From assembly GCF_988243305.1 (NCBI RefSeq), contig NZ_OZ547136.1: a stretch of DNA of 64,000 nt, one strand, 5' to 3'. Both the position numbers and the translations under genes were made by a program. Numbering within the stretch: the stretch's first letter is position 1; each line of letters starts with the position of its first letter. Positions 56,950 through 64,000 of this stretch are shown here, piece after piece. The notes under the pieces are model-generated. The model saw only the letters and a list, made by a program, of their open reading frames with translations. It searched no databases and was not told the DNA's origin.

Positions 56950-57987
56950 ATGTTTTCCGCATTGCGCCACCGTACCGCTGCCCTGGCGCTCGGCGTATGC
57001 TTTATTCTCCCCGTACACGCCTCGTCACCTAAACCTGGCGATTTTGCTAATACCCAGGCACGACATATTGCTACTTTCTTTCCGGGACGCATGACCGGAA
57101 CTCCTGCAGAAATGTTATCTGCCGATTATATTCGCCAGCAGTTTCAGCAAATGGGTTATCGCAGTGATATTCGGACATTTAATAGTCGGTATATTTATAC
57201 CGCCCGCGATAATCGCAAGAGCTGGCATAACGTGACGGGAAGTACGGTGATTGCCGCTCATGAAGGCAAAGCGCCGCAGCAGATCATCATTATGGCGCAT
57301 CTGGATACTTACGCCCCGCTGAGCGATGCTGACGCCGATGCCAATCTCGGCGGGCTGACGTTACAAGGAATGGATGATAACGCCGCAGGTTTAGGTGTCA
57401 TGCTGGAACTGGCAGAACGCCTGAAAAATACGCCTACCGAGTATGGTATTCGATTTGTGGCGACCAGTGGTGAAGAGGAAGGGAAATTAGGTGCTGAGAA
57501 TTTACTCAAGCGGATGAGTGACACCGAAAAGAAAAATACGCTGCTGGTGATTAATCTCGATAACTTAATTGTTGGCGATAAATTGTATTTCAACAGCGGC
57601 GTAAAAACCCCTGAAGCAGTAAGGAAATTAACGCGCGACAGGGCGCTGGCAATTGCGCGTAGTCATGGAATTGCCGCAACGACCAATCCGGGTTTGAATA
57701 AAAATTATCCGAAGGGTACTGGCTGTTGTAATGACGCCGAAGTTTTCGACAAAGCCGGTATTGCCGTACTTTCGGTAGAAGCAACAAATTGGAATCTTGG
57801 GAATAAGGATGGTTATCAGCAACGCGCAAAAACAGCTGCATTCCCTGCGGGAAATAGCTGGCATGACGTAAGACTGGATAATCAACAACATATTGATAAG
57901 GCACTTCCAGGAAGAATAGAACGTCGCTGCCGTGATGTTATGCGGATAATGCTACCGCTGGTGAAGGAGCTGGCGAAGGCGTCTTGA
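56950..57987 (+). CDS. iap: Alkaline phosphatase isozyme conversion aminopeptidase (M28 family)
   Basis: 345 aa with signal peptide, recognised as Iap. Confidence 0.93.
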   Translation: MFSALRHRTAALALGVCFILPVHASSPKPGDFANTQARHIATFFPGRMTGTPAEMLSADYIRQQFQQMGYRSDIRTFNSRYIYTARDNRKSWHNVTGSTVIAAHEGKAPQQIIIMAHLDTYAPLSDADADANLGGLTLQGMDDNAAGLGVMLELAERLKNTPTEYGIRFVATSGEEEGKLGAENLLKRMSDTEKKNTLLVINLDNLIVGDKLYFNSGVKTPEAVRKLTRDRALAIARSHGIAATTNPGLNKNYPKGTGCCNDAEVFDKAGIAVLSVEATNWNLGNKDGYQQRAKTAAFPAGNSWHDVRLDNQQHIDKALPGRIERRCRDVMRIMLPLVKELAKAS

Positions 57988-58007: not shown

Positions 58008-60414
58008 GGGAGTTCTACCGCAGGGGCGGGGAACTCCAAGTGATATCCATCATCGCATCCAGTGCGTCCGGTTTATCCCCGCTGACGCGGGGAACTCCGT
58101 GTGGGAACTACGAGTAGGCCGTTTTCTCTCGGTTTATCCCCGCTGGCGCGGGGAACTCCAATATCCGCGCCGTACCCAGCAAATGCTGACGGTTTATCCC
58201 CGCTGGCGCGGGGAACTCTACCGCATATTCACCAAAGTCCTCTATTTTGTCGGTTTATCCCCGCTGACGCGGGGAACTCGAGCGGACGCTCGACGATAAC
58301 ACCGATTTGCAAGGTTTATCCCCGCTGGCGCGGGGAACTCCAATATCCGCGCCGTACCCAGCAAATGCTGACGGTTTATCCCCGCTGGCGCGGGGAACTC
58401 TACCGCATATTCACCAAAGTCCTCTATTTTGTCGGTTTATCCCCGCTGACGCGGGGAACTCGAGCGGACGCTCGACGATAACACCGATTTGCAAGGTTTA
58501 TCCCCGCTGACGCGGGGAACTCCCGTCAGGCCGCGTCAATCGTTTAGCCCACGGCGGTTTATCCCCGCTGACGCGGGGAACTCACATGGAGTACATCATG
58601 AACAGACCACTGACCCGGTTTATCCCCGCTGACGCGGGGAACTCAGATTTTAGATGAGATGAAGTTGAATAGTTTACGGTTTATCCCCGCTGACGCGGGG
58701 AACTCATAAATCATTCTTTTCTTTCATCACCTACGACCGGTTTATCCCCGCTGACGCGGGAAACTCCTGTAGACGTTCTTTGGTAATGGTTTTCATCACG
58801 GTTTATCCCCGCTGACGCGGGGAACTCAATACTACAAACATCAAATGCGTTATTTACTGCGGTTTATCCCCGCTGACGCGGGGAACTCTAAGCCGTGACG
58901 AGGGTCGCCGCTGGCGTCAACGGTTTATCCCCGCTGACGCGGGGAACTCTTACAGATGTAATAAATCACACATGTAATAGCCGGTTTATCCCCGCTGACG
59001 CGGGGAACTCGATCGGGAGGATTTTAAACGCTGGTCAATGGCCGGTTTATCCCCGCTGACGCGGGGAACTCAATTACCGGGTGTCTAGTGCTCATACGCA
59101 GCCCGGTTTATCCCCGCTGACGCGGGGAACTCAATTACTGGGTGTCTCGTGCTCATATGCAGCCCGGTTTATCCCCGCTGACGCGGGGAACTCTTTCCCC
59201 CATGCGGGAAGCGCGTGCGATTTCGCGGTTTATCCCCGCTGACGCGGGGAACTCTTTTAGGTGTGCTGAGATTATTTGTCGCGGCGCGGTTTATCCCCGC
59301 TGACGCGGGGAACTCTTATCAGCAGCCAGACCAGCATTCGGGGAATACGGTTTATCCCCGCTGACGCGGGGAACTCATGATCAAATCAGTGCCGAGCTGG
59401 TGCAGATGCGGTTTATCCCCGCTGACGCGGGGAACTCAAAACAGGTTTGCCTGTCGCCCTCCGGTCCACCGGTTTATCCCCGCTGACGCGGGGAACTCCA
59501 ATCCGTTTATTACTTTATTTCTGCCGCCTTCGGTTTATCCCCGCTGACGCGGGGAACTCCAACGTTTTGGTAATCAACGGAAGGAGCTTCGCGGTTTATC
59601 CCCGCTGACGCGGGGAACTCAATAAATTCAGGAGCGGTAACGATATATTTAACGGTTTATCCCCGCTGACGCGGGGAACTCGTAAAGGCGTTGCCCTGTT
59701 CCGTCGCTGTTGTCGGTTTATCCCCGCTGACGCGGGGAACTCATCCGTTAATTATTGAGAGAGCTATCAGCTATCGGTTTATCCCCGCTGACGCGGGGAA
59801 CTCACCATCAGTCCTTGAGCCGAGAAAATCGCCGCCGGTTTATCCCCGCTGACGCGGGGAACTCAGCTATATACGGGAGCAAGATTATAATATCTGCGGT
59901 TTATCCCCGCTGACGCGGGGAACTCTTTCGCCCAATCTTGCGCGCTCTGACCTATCTGGGTTTATCCCCGCTGACGCGGGGAACTCGTGGGTGGCTGCCG
60001 TCGCGGCTGGTGCTGCGGCGGTTTATCCCCGCTGACGCGGGGAACTCACTGAGTATTTGCCTCAAGTGATGTACTGGTCCGGTTTATCCCCGCTGACGCG
60101 GGGAACTCAATATCGCCGTCAATGCCAATATTTTTCCGCGCGGTTTATCCCCGCTGACGCGGGGAACTCGTGAAAATAGAGGAAGGGCGCATTATTGGCG
60201 GCGGTTTATCCCCGCTGACGCGGGGAACTCGCGTCAGAAGCGATTGAATCAATAGCGGATCACGGTTTATCCCCGCTGACGCGGGGAACTCGTCCATTTT
60301 CCCCCTGGAGGCTGTAATTCACCGCGGTTTATCCCCGCTGACGCGGGGAACTCTTATTCAGCCAACGCGGCGCGGGGCTTGTTTGCGGTTTATCCCCGCT
60401 GACGCGGGGAACTC
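58008..60414 (-). CRISPR. Type I-E CRISPR array: 39 full 29-nt repeats plus one degenerate terminal repeat, 39 spacers (31-33 nt)
   Basis: Repeat CGGTTTATCCCCGCTG(A/G)CGCGGGGAACTC at about 61-bp period, i.e. GAGTTCCCCGCG(T/C)CAGCGGGGATAAACCG on the transcribed strand. The degenerate repeat is at the iap end and the AT-rich leader at the cas2 end. Confidence 0.97.
58130..58493 (-). repeat. Tandem duplication (2 x 182 bp) of a three-spacer/three-repeat block inside the CRISPR array
   Basis: Spacers CAATATCCGCGCCGTACCCAGCAAATGCTGA, TACCGCATATTCACCAAAGTCCTCTATTTTGT and GAGCGGACGCTCGACGATAACACCGATTTGCA occur twice in the same order, each copy with the same GGC/GGC/GAC repeat variants; ORF-track peptides are duplicated accordingly. 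Confidence 0.95.
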
Positions 60415-60519
60415 TCTAAAAGTATACATTTGTTCTTAAAGCATTTTTTCCCATAAAAACAACCCACCAACCTTAATGTAACATTTCCTTATTATTAAAG
60501 ATCAGCTAATTCTTTGTTT
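60415..60519 (-). promoter_or_regulatory. CRISPR leader (AT-rich) with array promoter
   Basis: AT-rich segment between the last repeat and the cas2 stop; sets array polarity. Confidence 0.8.
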
Positions 60520-61723
<1,204 letters not shown>

Positions 61724-61738
61724 TTTATTACACCTAAA

Positions 61739-62338
61739 TCACAGTGGAGCCAAAGATAGCAAGCCACATCCCATCGATTTAGCTGGCCCAATACCTTGCT
61801 GTACAAGATCTATTAACGCTGGCGCGTCGTTGATGGTGATCACCCCTTCAAAGCAAACCGTTTGAATCTTTCCACTTTTACCATCACCAGAAAAATACTG
61901 TGGCCGTTCCGATATGGGATGCACATCTTCAACGCGCGCCGCATTGCCCAATTTACGTTGCAACCACGCGATTTGTTCTGCTTCTTTTATTAACGGAACC
62001 CGACAGCGTTTAATATTCCCTTTACTATCCAGGCGCTTTTGATTGTCGAGAATAGTTTTGATCGGATTTGCCCGAAGCCGAAAATAGAGTGGAACACCAA
62101 CCTGAAGTTGAAATTCAACCTGTTTAGTTTTAATGACTGTCGCAACAGCAGTTGAAACAGGCATTTGCGCTGACTGCAATAAAACATGACAGCCTTCTGG
62201 TGTGTTTCGCTTCTCAACATGAAAAAGAAAATCACGAGCAGCATCCGGTCTGTTTGGAAATAAATGCCATAATCCCTGGTGAAGTTGGTAAAGATCCCTG
62301 CTCCAGGCCCTGGCAATGATGACTTTACTGAGATACAT
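61739..62338 (-). CDS. cas6e: Cas6e (CasE) pre-crRNA endoribonuclease
   Basis: 199 aa recognised as CasE. Confidence 0.95.
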   Translation of the reverse strand: MYLSKVIIARAWSRDLYQLHQGLWHLFPNRPDAARDFLFHVEKRNTPEGCHVLLQSAQMPVSTAVATVIKTKQVEFQLQVGVPLYFRLRANPIKTILDNQKRLDSKGNIKRCRVPLIKEAEQIAWLQRKLGNAARVEDVHPISERPQYFSGDGKSGKIQTVCFEGVITINDAPALIDLVQQGIGPAKSMGCGLLSLAPL

Positions 62339-62999
62339 CCATACCTCCTTTAATCACATACCATTCTCGGGAAGCAAATTGTCGAGGTAAGGTGATCATC
62401 GGTTCGTCGCGCGCCGTAAATTTTAAATGATGCCCTGTAACTGATTCCTCACTATAAATATCGCCGCCAACGGGCTCATAATTTAATAGCGCCTTCTGAG
62501 GATCCGATGCCTGACATGTCCCCAAAAAAAGCGGGTGTGTTAGTGGGCAACTTCTCCGCCCCAGGTAGGGTGTATACCGAGGCTTTAATACTGCTTTTTC
62601 AAGTTCTGAGATAACCATCGTTGCATGGGGTGTTAACCAGAGAGCGACGGTAAAGGAGGCATCACATAAATATTCGCGCCATGTTTGAATCGTTTCATGA
62701 CTTTTCAAACCACGGTAATCTTCTCGCGCTCCAAGGACTGTATGGTAATCACGCAACCCCGTTACAGACACACGACGATCGTCAAGAATGAGTTCATCGC
62801 AGCGCACTGCAAATTGCACACTCTCTGATAACACCTGTAATGAAGAAGTATCATCACGTTGGATCCCAAGACAAGCCCCGAGTAGCCCTAATAACCCGCT
62901 TCGGGTCGGAAAACTTCCGGTAGGTCGCGTTCCTTCAAAGGTCGGCAGCCCCCAGGCTTGCATTGGCCCAGCAAGCCGCAAGATCAAATAAGATCTCAT
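62325..62999 (-). CDS. cas5: Cas5e (CasD) Cascade subunit
   Basis: Start trimmed to MRSYLILRLAGPMQAWG. Confidence 0.94.
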   Translation of the reverse strand: MRSYLILRLAGPMQAWGLPTFEGTRPTGSFPTRSGLLGLLGACLGIQRDDTSSLQVLSESVQFAVRCDELILDDRRVSVTGLRDYHTVLGAREDYRGLKSHETIQTWREYLCDASFTVALWLTPHATMVISELEKAVLKPRYTPYLGRRSCPLTHPLFLGTCQASDPQKALLNYEPVGGDIYSEESVTGHHLKFTARDEPMITLPRQFASREWYVIKGGMDVSQ

Positions 63000-63001
63000 G
63001 T

Positions 63002-64000
63002 TCATGCCTCGCCATTATTACGAACCCAGGATTTTAACTGTTCTAAAGTAGGCATTTGTTTAACTTGAGCAGTAATTGGGTCTACATCAGATAAGCTGAA
63101 TTGCGCAGCAGCTCCGTTCAGACCATATCCATTGGCAACGCGATCCCAATATTGATTAAACGCCTGTATAGACGGTTGCAAAAAGCCATCTTTCGCTTTA
63201 ACAGCTTTTTCAAAAGCATTTGCCATAGAAAGTGGCATATCGGAGAAATTAACCATTACCATATCCGCAGGGTTAAAAGCGGCATAAGTACGCTGTTTTG
63301 CTCCAGGGACCTCTGTTGCCAGCATATGAACAACATTGGTTGCAATTTCCAGAGCCTGCTCCCTGGAGGCACCACCTAAATTTTCCTGAAGTTGAGCGAG
63401 GTTAATGTTGGCGTAACGATAAAAAACACCCGATGAAAATTCCTGAGTTCCCAGATGTGCAGAACCTTGTTCCTGTAAATCATCTACAGCGGTGAACCAG
63501 TCAATATCTGAATCAACCTGATGAGTAGTGATCGCATGCGCAATGGACATTGCACCATCAACTTTTCCCAACTCACTCATCATGCCGCTGGTTGCCATTC
63601 TTCCGCTAAGCGCAATATCAACACCCTGCTGTAAATTCACACGTATGGCGGCAATATCTTCCTTAAGAACTTTGAGCAGCTTTTTATCATCCAGATTATC
63701 AGCCTCTGCTTTTGCAACCTGCTCACAGAACCAGGCTATTTCTCCCACAACCCAGGGAGTAACCGCATCGGCAGAAATCTTTTCGGCTTCATCAACTAAT
63801 TTACCGGAGAGCAGCGCTAATGTCTTATCGATGATTTTTTGGTCAAAACGTTCACCAAGTTTTTGCCGAAGAACATCACGTAATTGTGCAAGATGAATTG
63901 TTCTGAGACTGGATTCACCAATATTTTGTGCGTAATAATCACTTTTACGCATCGCACGTTTAAGGCTTTGACTTGAAATTCTTACTCGTCTTTTCCCGCC
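63002..64000 (-). CDS. cas7: Cas7e (CasC) Cascade backbone subunit, 5' end beyond the window
   Basis: C-terminal 316+ aa of a CasC-like protein; the frame is open to the window edge. Confidence 0.85.

Follow-up and report, generated by a model that had tools for sequence, protein, structure and literature searches.

Primed adaptation in type I-E CRISPR (short palindromic repeats that are clustered and regularly interspaced) systems was reportedly described by Datsenko et al. in 2012. The present work concerns two nearly identical, neighbouring spacers (viz. S17 and S18) in the type I-E CRISPR1 array of a 64,000-nucleotide stretch of DNA (contig NZ_OZ547136.1 of assembly GCF_988243305.1), the whole of which is referred to below as the window. 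In the experiments on primed I-E adaptation, the new spacers have AAG protospacer adjacent motifs (PAMs) and those taken upstream of the priming site are in the same orientation as it (Strotskaya et al. 2017, PMC5389539). Interference by the I-E system of E. coli copes poorly with mutations in the seed or the PAM, but priming withstands mismatches very well (Kunne et al. 2018, PMC6212716). Protospacers are used in a strongly non-uniform manner, hot sites differing from cold ones by about 4,000-fold (Musharova et al. 2017, PMC5389516), and hot protospacers in I-E adaptation also form the subject of the acquisition affecting motif (AAM) of Yosef et al. 2013, as it is cited in a passage of PMC4027179. 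The CRISPR1 spacers of E. coli target prophages almost exclusively, with a few prophage species being heavily targeted (Dion et al. 2024, PMC10910852). Lastly, adjacent spacers showing at least 90% identity are known as "similar spacers" (Kupczok et al. 2015, PMC4524480), and standard pipelines either treat such spacers as products of mutation or error and merge them, or regard them as duplicates and mask them (PMC4524480).

The spacers S17 and S18 resemble the similar spacers of Kupczok et al. in being adjacent and at least 90% identical, but they differ from them in that they are distinct acquisitions, each with an exact target of its own. It is highly probable that the two spacers are separate captures of an orthologous, AAG-flanked 32-bp site from two lineages within one family of HP1-like temperate Escherichia phages of the P2 family. 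The similarity between them comes from the local conservation of this site between two diverged phages, and not from mutation of one phage.

The adjacent spacer pair S17/S18

The array and the elements that make up the pair are as follows (crRNA, CRISPR RNA):

58008..60414, minus strand: CRISPR1 (iap-side, type I-E) array of 40 repeats and 39 spacers with a 61-nt period; newest end at 60414
59072-59103, minus strand: spacer S17, AATTACCGGGTGTCTAGTGCTCATACGCAGCC, 32 nt, older than S18; in crRNA sense GGCTGCGTATGAGCACTAGACACCCGGTAATT
59133-59164, minus strand: spacer S18, AATTACTGGGTGTCTCGTGCTCATATGCAGCC, 32 nt, newer than S17; in crRNA sense GGCTGCATATGAGCACGAGACACCCAGTAATT
59043-59071, 59104-59132 and 59165-59193, minus strand: the three identical repeats of 29 nt that bracket S17 and S18

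The original prediction, which was made from the DNA letters of the window, had noted two adjacent spacers with identical boundaries that differ at 3 of 32 positions, and its coordinates and sequences are exact. The differences are at + strand positions 7, 16 and 26. Among the 703 spacer pairs of the array, only three are closer than S17/S18, and these are identical pairs resulting from a tandem duplication of 182 bp, while all remaining pairs show at least 15 differences; for two random 32-mers the probability of 3 or fewer differences is 7.5e-15. A pattern like that of S17/S18 was not found elsewhere in the window. As the leader and cas1e-cas2e are located at the high-coordinate end of the array, S18 is the newer of the two spacers.

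The same adjacent pair, with both spacers identical in sequence, is present in the related array of E. coli NY1601, which was sequenced independently. The two arrays have spacers 1, 2, 3, 4, 8, 17, 18 and 21 in common and all eight are identical in sequence, although the flanks of the window show 99.3% and 99.96% identity to NY1601 (with 19 differences in 2,696 nt in the iap flank). Since the common spacers are identical despite these flank differences, drift within the array is negligible on the timescale of array turnover. The flank identities also place the window in E. coli.

Protospacers in two prophage lineages and the alternative explanations

An exact copy of S18 is found in two viral contigs of IMG/VR (by a scan with an IUPAC pattern), in one JGI metagenome contig and in E. 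coli 40EC, where it is part of a prophage. On the + strand CTT comes after every one of these matches, corresponding to a 5'-AAG PAM in the crRNA sense.

Contigs L002, L003 and L009 and the 40EC prophage (type B): S18 protospacer, 32/32, AAG PAM

The target of S17 was not found in any of the DNA collections that were scanned directly, including INPHARED, the GTDB representatives and the JGI metagenomes. The scan of the JGI metagenomes found the S18 allele alone, a degenerate spacer pattern had no match in the GTDB species-representative genomes, and the INPHARED phage records matched neither S17 nor S18, due to which the target is not a catalogued phage. The source of S17 was reached by way of a protein, as S17 predicts an upstream protein that ends in ...GCV and not in ...GCI; homologues were searched for, a cluster look-up was made and the contigs were fetched. 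The natural C-termini recovered in this manner were GCI, GCL and DCI, plus three cases of GCV. The exact S17 protospacer (32/32, AAG PAM) is contained in a prophage contig of E. albertii (L019; 32,249 nt, type A), and it is also present, with its AAG PAM, in a Logan contig that is probably from the same isolate. The possibility that the match in L019 is a misassembled CRISPR fragment was considered and rejected, as the site sits within a 32-kb syntenic prophage. Contigs L021 and L022 carry an intermediate natural allele, one mismatch from S17. The spacers thus have exact prophage targets in both cases, and the PAM is the AAG expected for type I-E systems for S17 and S18 alike.

The S17 and S18 protospacers are at the orthologous position of syntenic prophages, where the stop codon of one gene and the start codon of the next overlap as ATGA (for S18 in crRNA sense, GGC TGC ATA TGA overlapping ATG AGC ACG AGA CAC CCA GTA ATT). 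The upstream, orf33-like gene ends in ...GC[I/V]* and the downstream, orf34-like gene starts with MSTRHPVI. One of the three differences between S17 and S18 is a Val/Ile change in the last codon of the orf33-like gene, whereas the other two are synonymous changes in Thr (ACT/ACG) and Pro (CCG/CCA) codons of the orf34-like gene. All three differences, when compared with the prophage alleles, correspond to natural polymorphisms. The probability that at least 2 of 3 random changes are silent is 0.10, and the evidence from codon positions is weak when taken alone. All alleles keep the AAG PAM, which is supplied by the Lys codon in ...FLK-G-C-x at the orf33-like C-terminus (L010-L022).

The gene upstream of the junction encodes a protein of 289-320 aa (phrog_1677) homologous to orf33 of HP1/HP2, the downstream gene encodes a protein of 211 aa (phrog_1398, Pfam HP1_ORF34), and both genes come after the tail-fibre genes. 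The complete prophages of N1420 and 40EC, each of about 33 kb, contain genes for an integrase, a GPA replication endonuclease, Ogr/Delta, portal, terminase, GPO scaffold and P2-family capsid proteins and a contractile-tail module. In the RefSeq annotations and Pfam matches the P2-type modules are represented by GPO, capsid, gpM, gpL, Ogr/Delta, GPA, integrase and homologues of HP1 Orf24, orf33 and orf34. In tblastn searches the orf34-like protein matches HP1, HP2, phiO18P and ESSI2 at 41-46% identity, and the closest cultured phage shows just about 65-67% DNA identity to the target phage, with none of the catalogued phages above about 67%. On this gene content, the target is identified as a temperate phage of the P2 family (Peduoviridae-type), in the HP1/phiO18P/ESSI2-like subgroup.

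The lineage from E. albertii (lineage A) and that of 40EC (lineage B) show 78.8% identity over 1.5 kb around the site and 79.9% over 27 kb. Between them a window of 32 nt contains on average 7.2 mismatches, whereas the protospacer contains 3. The junction site is in a locally conserved patch, and due to this both lineages have it, its AAG PAM being intact. The original prediction had preferred the reading that the pair arose by two acquisitions from the same protospacer in two variants of a target, and this reading is borne out, as each spacer matches its own prophage lineage at 32/32 with AAG. The repeated encounter with related invaders, which it had proposed, likewise agrees with the exact targets in two related prophage lineages; the other case which it had raised, viz. 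matches to two unrelated targets, does not apply, as the targets are an orthologous site in related prophages.

If S17 and S18 had been gained in different strains and were joined later by recombination between arrays, then priming would have had no part in the origin of the pair. Arrays are known to recombine in some species, and as the window strain and NY1601 inherited the pair from a shared ancestor in which it was already fixed, the order of events is not observable. However, the evolution of E. coli arrays is explained by vertical inheritance and deletion without recombination (PMC4524480), and arrays holding just one of S17 and S18 were not found among 5,426 complete genomes, which also counts against such an origin; we consider it very unlikely. 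An origin of S18 from an escape point mutant of one phage, by re-acquisition, which the original prediction had offered as an example, is even less likely. One of the differences between S17 and S18 is at seed position 7, and cases in which a seed mutation gave escape and priming followed are well documented (PMC6212716). However, the two alleles sit in lineages that are about 20% apart genome-wide, with the above identities of 78.8% locally and 79.9% over 27 kb and with 3 of 32 differences being below the background between them, and two of the three differences are synonymous and outside the seed, so that they offer no escape benefit. Further, a lineage-A genome with the S18 allele (or the reverse) that is more than 98% identical elsewhere was not found in any collection searched. 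The protospacer is also less divergent than the neighbouring DNA and without any sign of CRISPR-driven diversification; a proposal that its seed had been diversified in this manner was considered and is unsupported.

It is barely credible that one repeat-spacer unit was duplicated in tandem and then gained three point mutations within the array, which corresponds to the duplication with later divergence of the original prediction. It is true that spacer duplicates are common in E. coli arrays (PMC4524480) and that this array itself holds a perfect three-unit tandem duplication of 182 bp (58131-58494). However, if the differences had resulted from random mutations in the array, they should not reproduce phage sequences, whereas S17 and S18 each equal a different natural phage allele exactly and all three differences are accounted for by these alleles. 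Of random variants with three substitutions, only about 2 in 133,920 would coincide with one of the natural alleles at distance 3, of which two are known. Further, there are zero mutations in the 255 nt of spacers common with NY1601 and in the 182-bp duplicate, and the repeats flanking S17 and S18 are identical. Finally, a sequencing or assembly error creating false differences between identical spacers, a case also named by the original prediction, is excluded by the presence of the same pair in the independent genome of NY1601 and by the separate exact match of each version to phage DNA.

Based on the preferred interpretation of separate captures, S17/S18 provide a fully resolved natural case in which two diverged phage relatives were sampled by an array at one and the same site. 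The targeting of prophages by E. coli spacers is already published, and the pair is a clean example of an ordinary mechanism; it represents no new mechanism or system. The protective ranges of the two spacers, as judged from their targets, are probably distinct. Clustering pipelines that merge spacers of at least 90% identity (Kupczok et al. 2015) would erase this distinction.

Order of events, possible priming and a possible preference for the site

S17 was inserted first, from lineage-A-like DNA (E. albertii prophage type), and S18 was inserted next, on the leader side, from lineage-B-like DNA (E. coli 40EC prophage type). The S17 crRNA matches the lineage-B site at 29/32 with an AAG PAM, the mismatches being at crRNA positions 7 (seed), 17 and 26, so the resident spacer partly matches the donor DNA of the new spacer, as in priming. 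If Cascade loaded with S17 met lineage B, direct interference would presumably have been weakened while priming would still have been allowed, and the acquisition of S18 would have restored a perfect match to lineage B. Two other spacers of the array, S26 and S27, would have been taken later, from the same phage strand, from a phage of the lineage-A/N1420 type:

59621..59652, minus strand: spacer S26; matches type-A and N1420 prophages at 32/32 with AAG, on the phage strand that also carries the S17 site
59682..59713, minus strand: spacer S27, adjoining S26; its 32/32 match with AAG falls in the tail-fibre gene (type-A and N1420 prophages), again on this phage strand

Relative to the S17 site, those of S26 and S27 are located on the same strand, 8.8 and 3.4 kb in the upstream direction, and with n=2 the chance expectation for both being on this strand is about 0.33 (354 of 614 AAG sites are on it). 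Spacers against this phage are clustered within arrays, with p of about 0.02-0.03 for the window and about 0.001 for strain O111:H21 15A.

These observations are similar to those on experimental primed I-E adaptation (PMC5389539, PMC6212716) in that there is a partial match, including a seed mismatch, to incoming DNA with an intact AAG PAM, and new spacers with AAG PAMs are located on the same strand and upstream of the site. They differ in that the target here is a naturally diverged relative (about 80% identity) and not a point mutant, and in that the new spacer S18 is the orthologue of the priming site, which is not singled out in the experiments; moreover, the case is known here from sequence alone. 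The pattern of S17, S18, S26 and S27 appears compatible with priming or interference-driven adaptation, but it is no proof of them. That S18 was primed by S17, and was not acquired independently by naive adaptation at a favoured site, is possible, although it is not what we would most expect.

A number of points weigh against the above account. The source of S17 is essentially one independent genome, as L020, L027 and L029 are probably derived from reads of the same isolate as L019, and the matches concern alleles only and not the actual donor phages. The adjacency of S17 and S18 could reflect the loss of spacers that were once between them. The evidence for priming from strand and position comes from just 2-3 spacers. 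In addition, the priming protospacer was not Cas1-enriched in experiments (PMC5389516), and priming does not by itself predict that the priming site is recaptured. As the priming protospacer is not specially associated with Cas1, strongly non-uniform use of protospacers, chance or both provide a better explanation for the capture of this site a second time.

A third allele of the site (X; AATTACCGGGTGTCTCGTGCTCATATGCAGTC), with two mismatches from S18, is present as a spacer in the lineage of E. coli containing W, EC16 and ST2350, in arrays with the other E. coli I-E repeat type (...AACAC), and it matches a third viral contig exactly with an AAG PAM. The records with such arrays (L005, L006 and L023-L025) are labelled E. 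coli W, ST2350, B-766, EC16 and "DH5alpha". The preceding spacers are different in W and ST2350, and an independent gain of X by each of them was considered. However, this was rejected, as EC16 has the ancestor-like spacer order from which both W and ST2350 derive by deletion, and X was acquired once in this lineage. With an EC16-type array and deletions in W and ST2350, the history of this lineage fits the vertical descent and deletion reported for E. coli arrays (PMC4524480). The spacer just before X exactly matches the terminase gene of the 40EC prophage; the match has an ATG PAM at one end and CTT at the other, due to which this spacer may have been flipped.

There are thus three independent captures of one site (S17, S18 and X). 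All of them have an AAG PAM, and the matches of S17, S18, S26, S27 and X are without exception preceded by AAG. The capture of one site three times as three alleles is similar to the hot protospacers reported by Musharova et al. 2017 (PMC5389516), but the "hotness" in the present case is inferred from a coincidence of modest significance. If the 614-744 AAG sites per phage were used uniformly, the sharing of a site among four spacers would have p of about 0.01, but it was because of this same coincidence that the pair was noticed in the first place. Our initial view of the three captures as strong evidence for a hot spot was toned down, as at least 17 distinct sites of this phage (Chao1 about 33) are represented in E. 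coli arrays. With so many sites, coincidence with another lineage is expected in about 5-10% of cases, which weakens X as an independent replicate.

That the gene-junction site is intrinsically favoured and that S17-S18 form a natural record of primed immunity being "updated" across successive lineages of HP1-like prophages is a speculative interpretation, which we regard as rather unlikely. In a passage of PMC10910852 the E. coli CRISPR system is reported to be transcriptionally repressed in laboratory conditions. If the interpretation were true, the pair would be field evidence that the supposedly silent I-E system of E. coli primes in nature, and the succession of encounters with phage lineages could be reconstructed from allelic series of spacers.

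The CRISPR1 locus and phage-directed spacers in E. coli

Judged by its sequence features, the array is a canonical part of a canonical E. coli type I-E CRISPR1 locus, with 29-nt repeats that form a hairpin, spacers of about 32 nt in a 61-nt period, cas genes and a leader, and AAG PAMs. Its transcription is on the minus strand and proceeds from an AT-rich leader, and the homologous locus in NY1601 is annotated as CRISPR. The other features of the locus are as follows:

56950..57987, plus strand: iap, aminopeptidase gene, a marker of the Escherichia iap-cas CRISPR1 locus
58008-58036, minus strand: degenerate terminal repeat (GGGAGTTCTACCGCAGGGGCGGGGAACTC) at the leader-distal end, counted among the 40 repeats
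58037-58068, minus strand: 39th (terminal) spacer, 32 nt, at the leader-distal end
60415..60519, minus strand: AT-rich leader between the first repeat and cas2e, same sequence as the NY1601 leader
60520..60804, minus strand: cas2e (TIGR01873, 140 bits), coordinates carried over from the NY1601 annotation
60806..61723, minus strand: cas1e (TIGR03638, 378 bits)
61739-62338, minus strand: cas6e (NCBIfam equivalog)
62325-63005, minus strand: cas5e (NCBIfam equivalog)
63002-63952, minus strand: cas7e (NCBIfam equivalog)

For Cas2e, Cas1e, Cas6e, Cas5e and Cas7e every NCBIfam equivalog score is above the cut-off. In comparison to CRISPR1 of E. coli K-12, the gene order cysD-iap-array-leader-cas2e-cas1e-cas6e-cas5e-cas7e is the same and at the same chromosomal position, as are the 29-nt repeat with its 7-bp hairpin, the 32-nt spacers, the 61-nt period and the AAG PAM, and two K-12 spacers are directed against the same phage family. 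However, most repeats of the window array have the loop GUCA whereas those of K-12 have GCCA, with the predicted fold unchanged, and the spacer content is wholly distinct, with 39 spacers in the window array versus 12 in K-12.

The consensus of the repeats on the + strand is CGGTTTATCCCCGCTGACGCGGGGAACTC (29 nt); 39 repeats have 5 or fewer mismatches and the majority are identical. The repeat is predicted to fold as a hairpin with a 7-bp stem (-15.1 kcal/mol, z = -4.0), and a search of the repeats against Rfam gave nothing at the gathering threshold. A strict repeat search misses the degenerate terminal repeat and the terminal spacer (58008-58068). Of the 38 spacers that were parsed, 35 are of 32 nt, two are of 31 nt (58159-58189 and 58341-58371) and one is of 33 nt (60292-60324). 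The K-12-type G in the hairpin loop is found in four old leader-distal repeats (58130-58400), while all newer repeats have A, and the repeat at 58738-58766 (GGGAAACTC) has a G-to-A change in the stem. In the repeats at 58312, 58494 and 59958 the first + strand base is A or G and not C. As the last base of the repeat is derived from the PAM and it is not G in these cases, this implies that their adjoining spacers come from non-AAG PAMs. The perfect 182-bp tandem duplication at 58131-58494 covers three repeat-spacer units (spacers 58159, 58219 and 58280 repeated as 58341, 58401 and 58462), and as NY1601 holds each of these units once, the duplication is recent.

When 21 kb of the type-A phage (L026, an E. 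albertii prophage) was searched against 5,426 complete E. coli genomes, matches were found in 1,312 of them, although many of these are laboratory derivatives of K-12, due to which the natural prevalence is overstated. The prophage itself is present in 8 genomes, and the other 59 matches that were sampled are all CRISPR spacers, with 95-100% identity and the above-noted number of distinct sites. The HP1-like lineage of the P2 family is thus rare as a prophage (8/5,426) but common as a target of spacers (about 1,300/5,426, including K-12). In the complete genomes, 15 have a spacer, 8 have the prophage and none has both, but the expected overlap is only about 0.02, so this result is without statistical power. 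These results are similar to the anti-prophage memory described by Dion et al. 2024 (PMC10910852) in that the targets are prophages of Enterobacteriaceae and not known virulent coliphages, structural genes are targeted, and spacer and prophage rarely occur in one genome. They differ from that work in that allelic spacer pairs and priming are not discussed there and the terms "priming" and "primed" are absent from the paper. The pair S17/S18 adds a concrete case to the published view of E. coli I-E arrays as a memory of prophages.

In CRISPR1 of K-12 MG1655, spacers 1 (newest, leader-proximal) and 7 match the type-A and N1420 prophages at 32/32 with AAG, their targets being in the terminase and the gpM region. 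Larger numbers of spacers against the HP1-like phage family are found in CRISPR1 of strain O111:H21 15A (seven consecutive spacers, viz. 3-9, plus spacer 12) and in CRISPR2 of strain 442/2 (six spacers), where the PAMs are mostly ATG, not AAG, and both strands are targeted. Two records labelled "DH5alpha" (NZ_CP026085.1 and NZ_CM135829.1) show the same W-type spacer match. The array of NZ_CP026085.1 is that of E. coli W and not of K-12, whereas the genuine DH5alpha (NZ_CP025520.1) has the K-12 pattern, and the strains of these two records are probably mislabelled.

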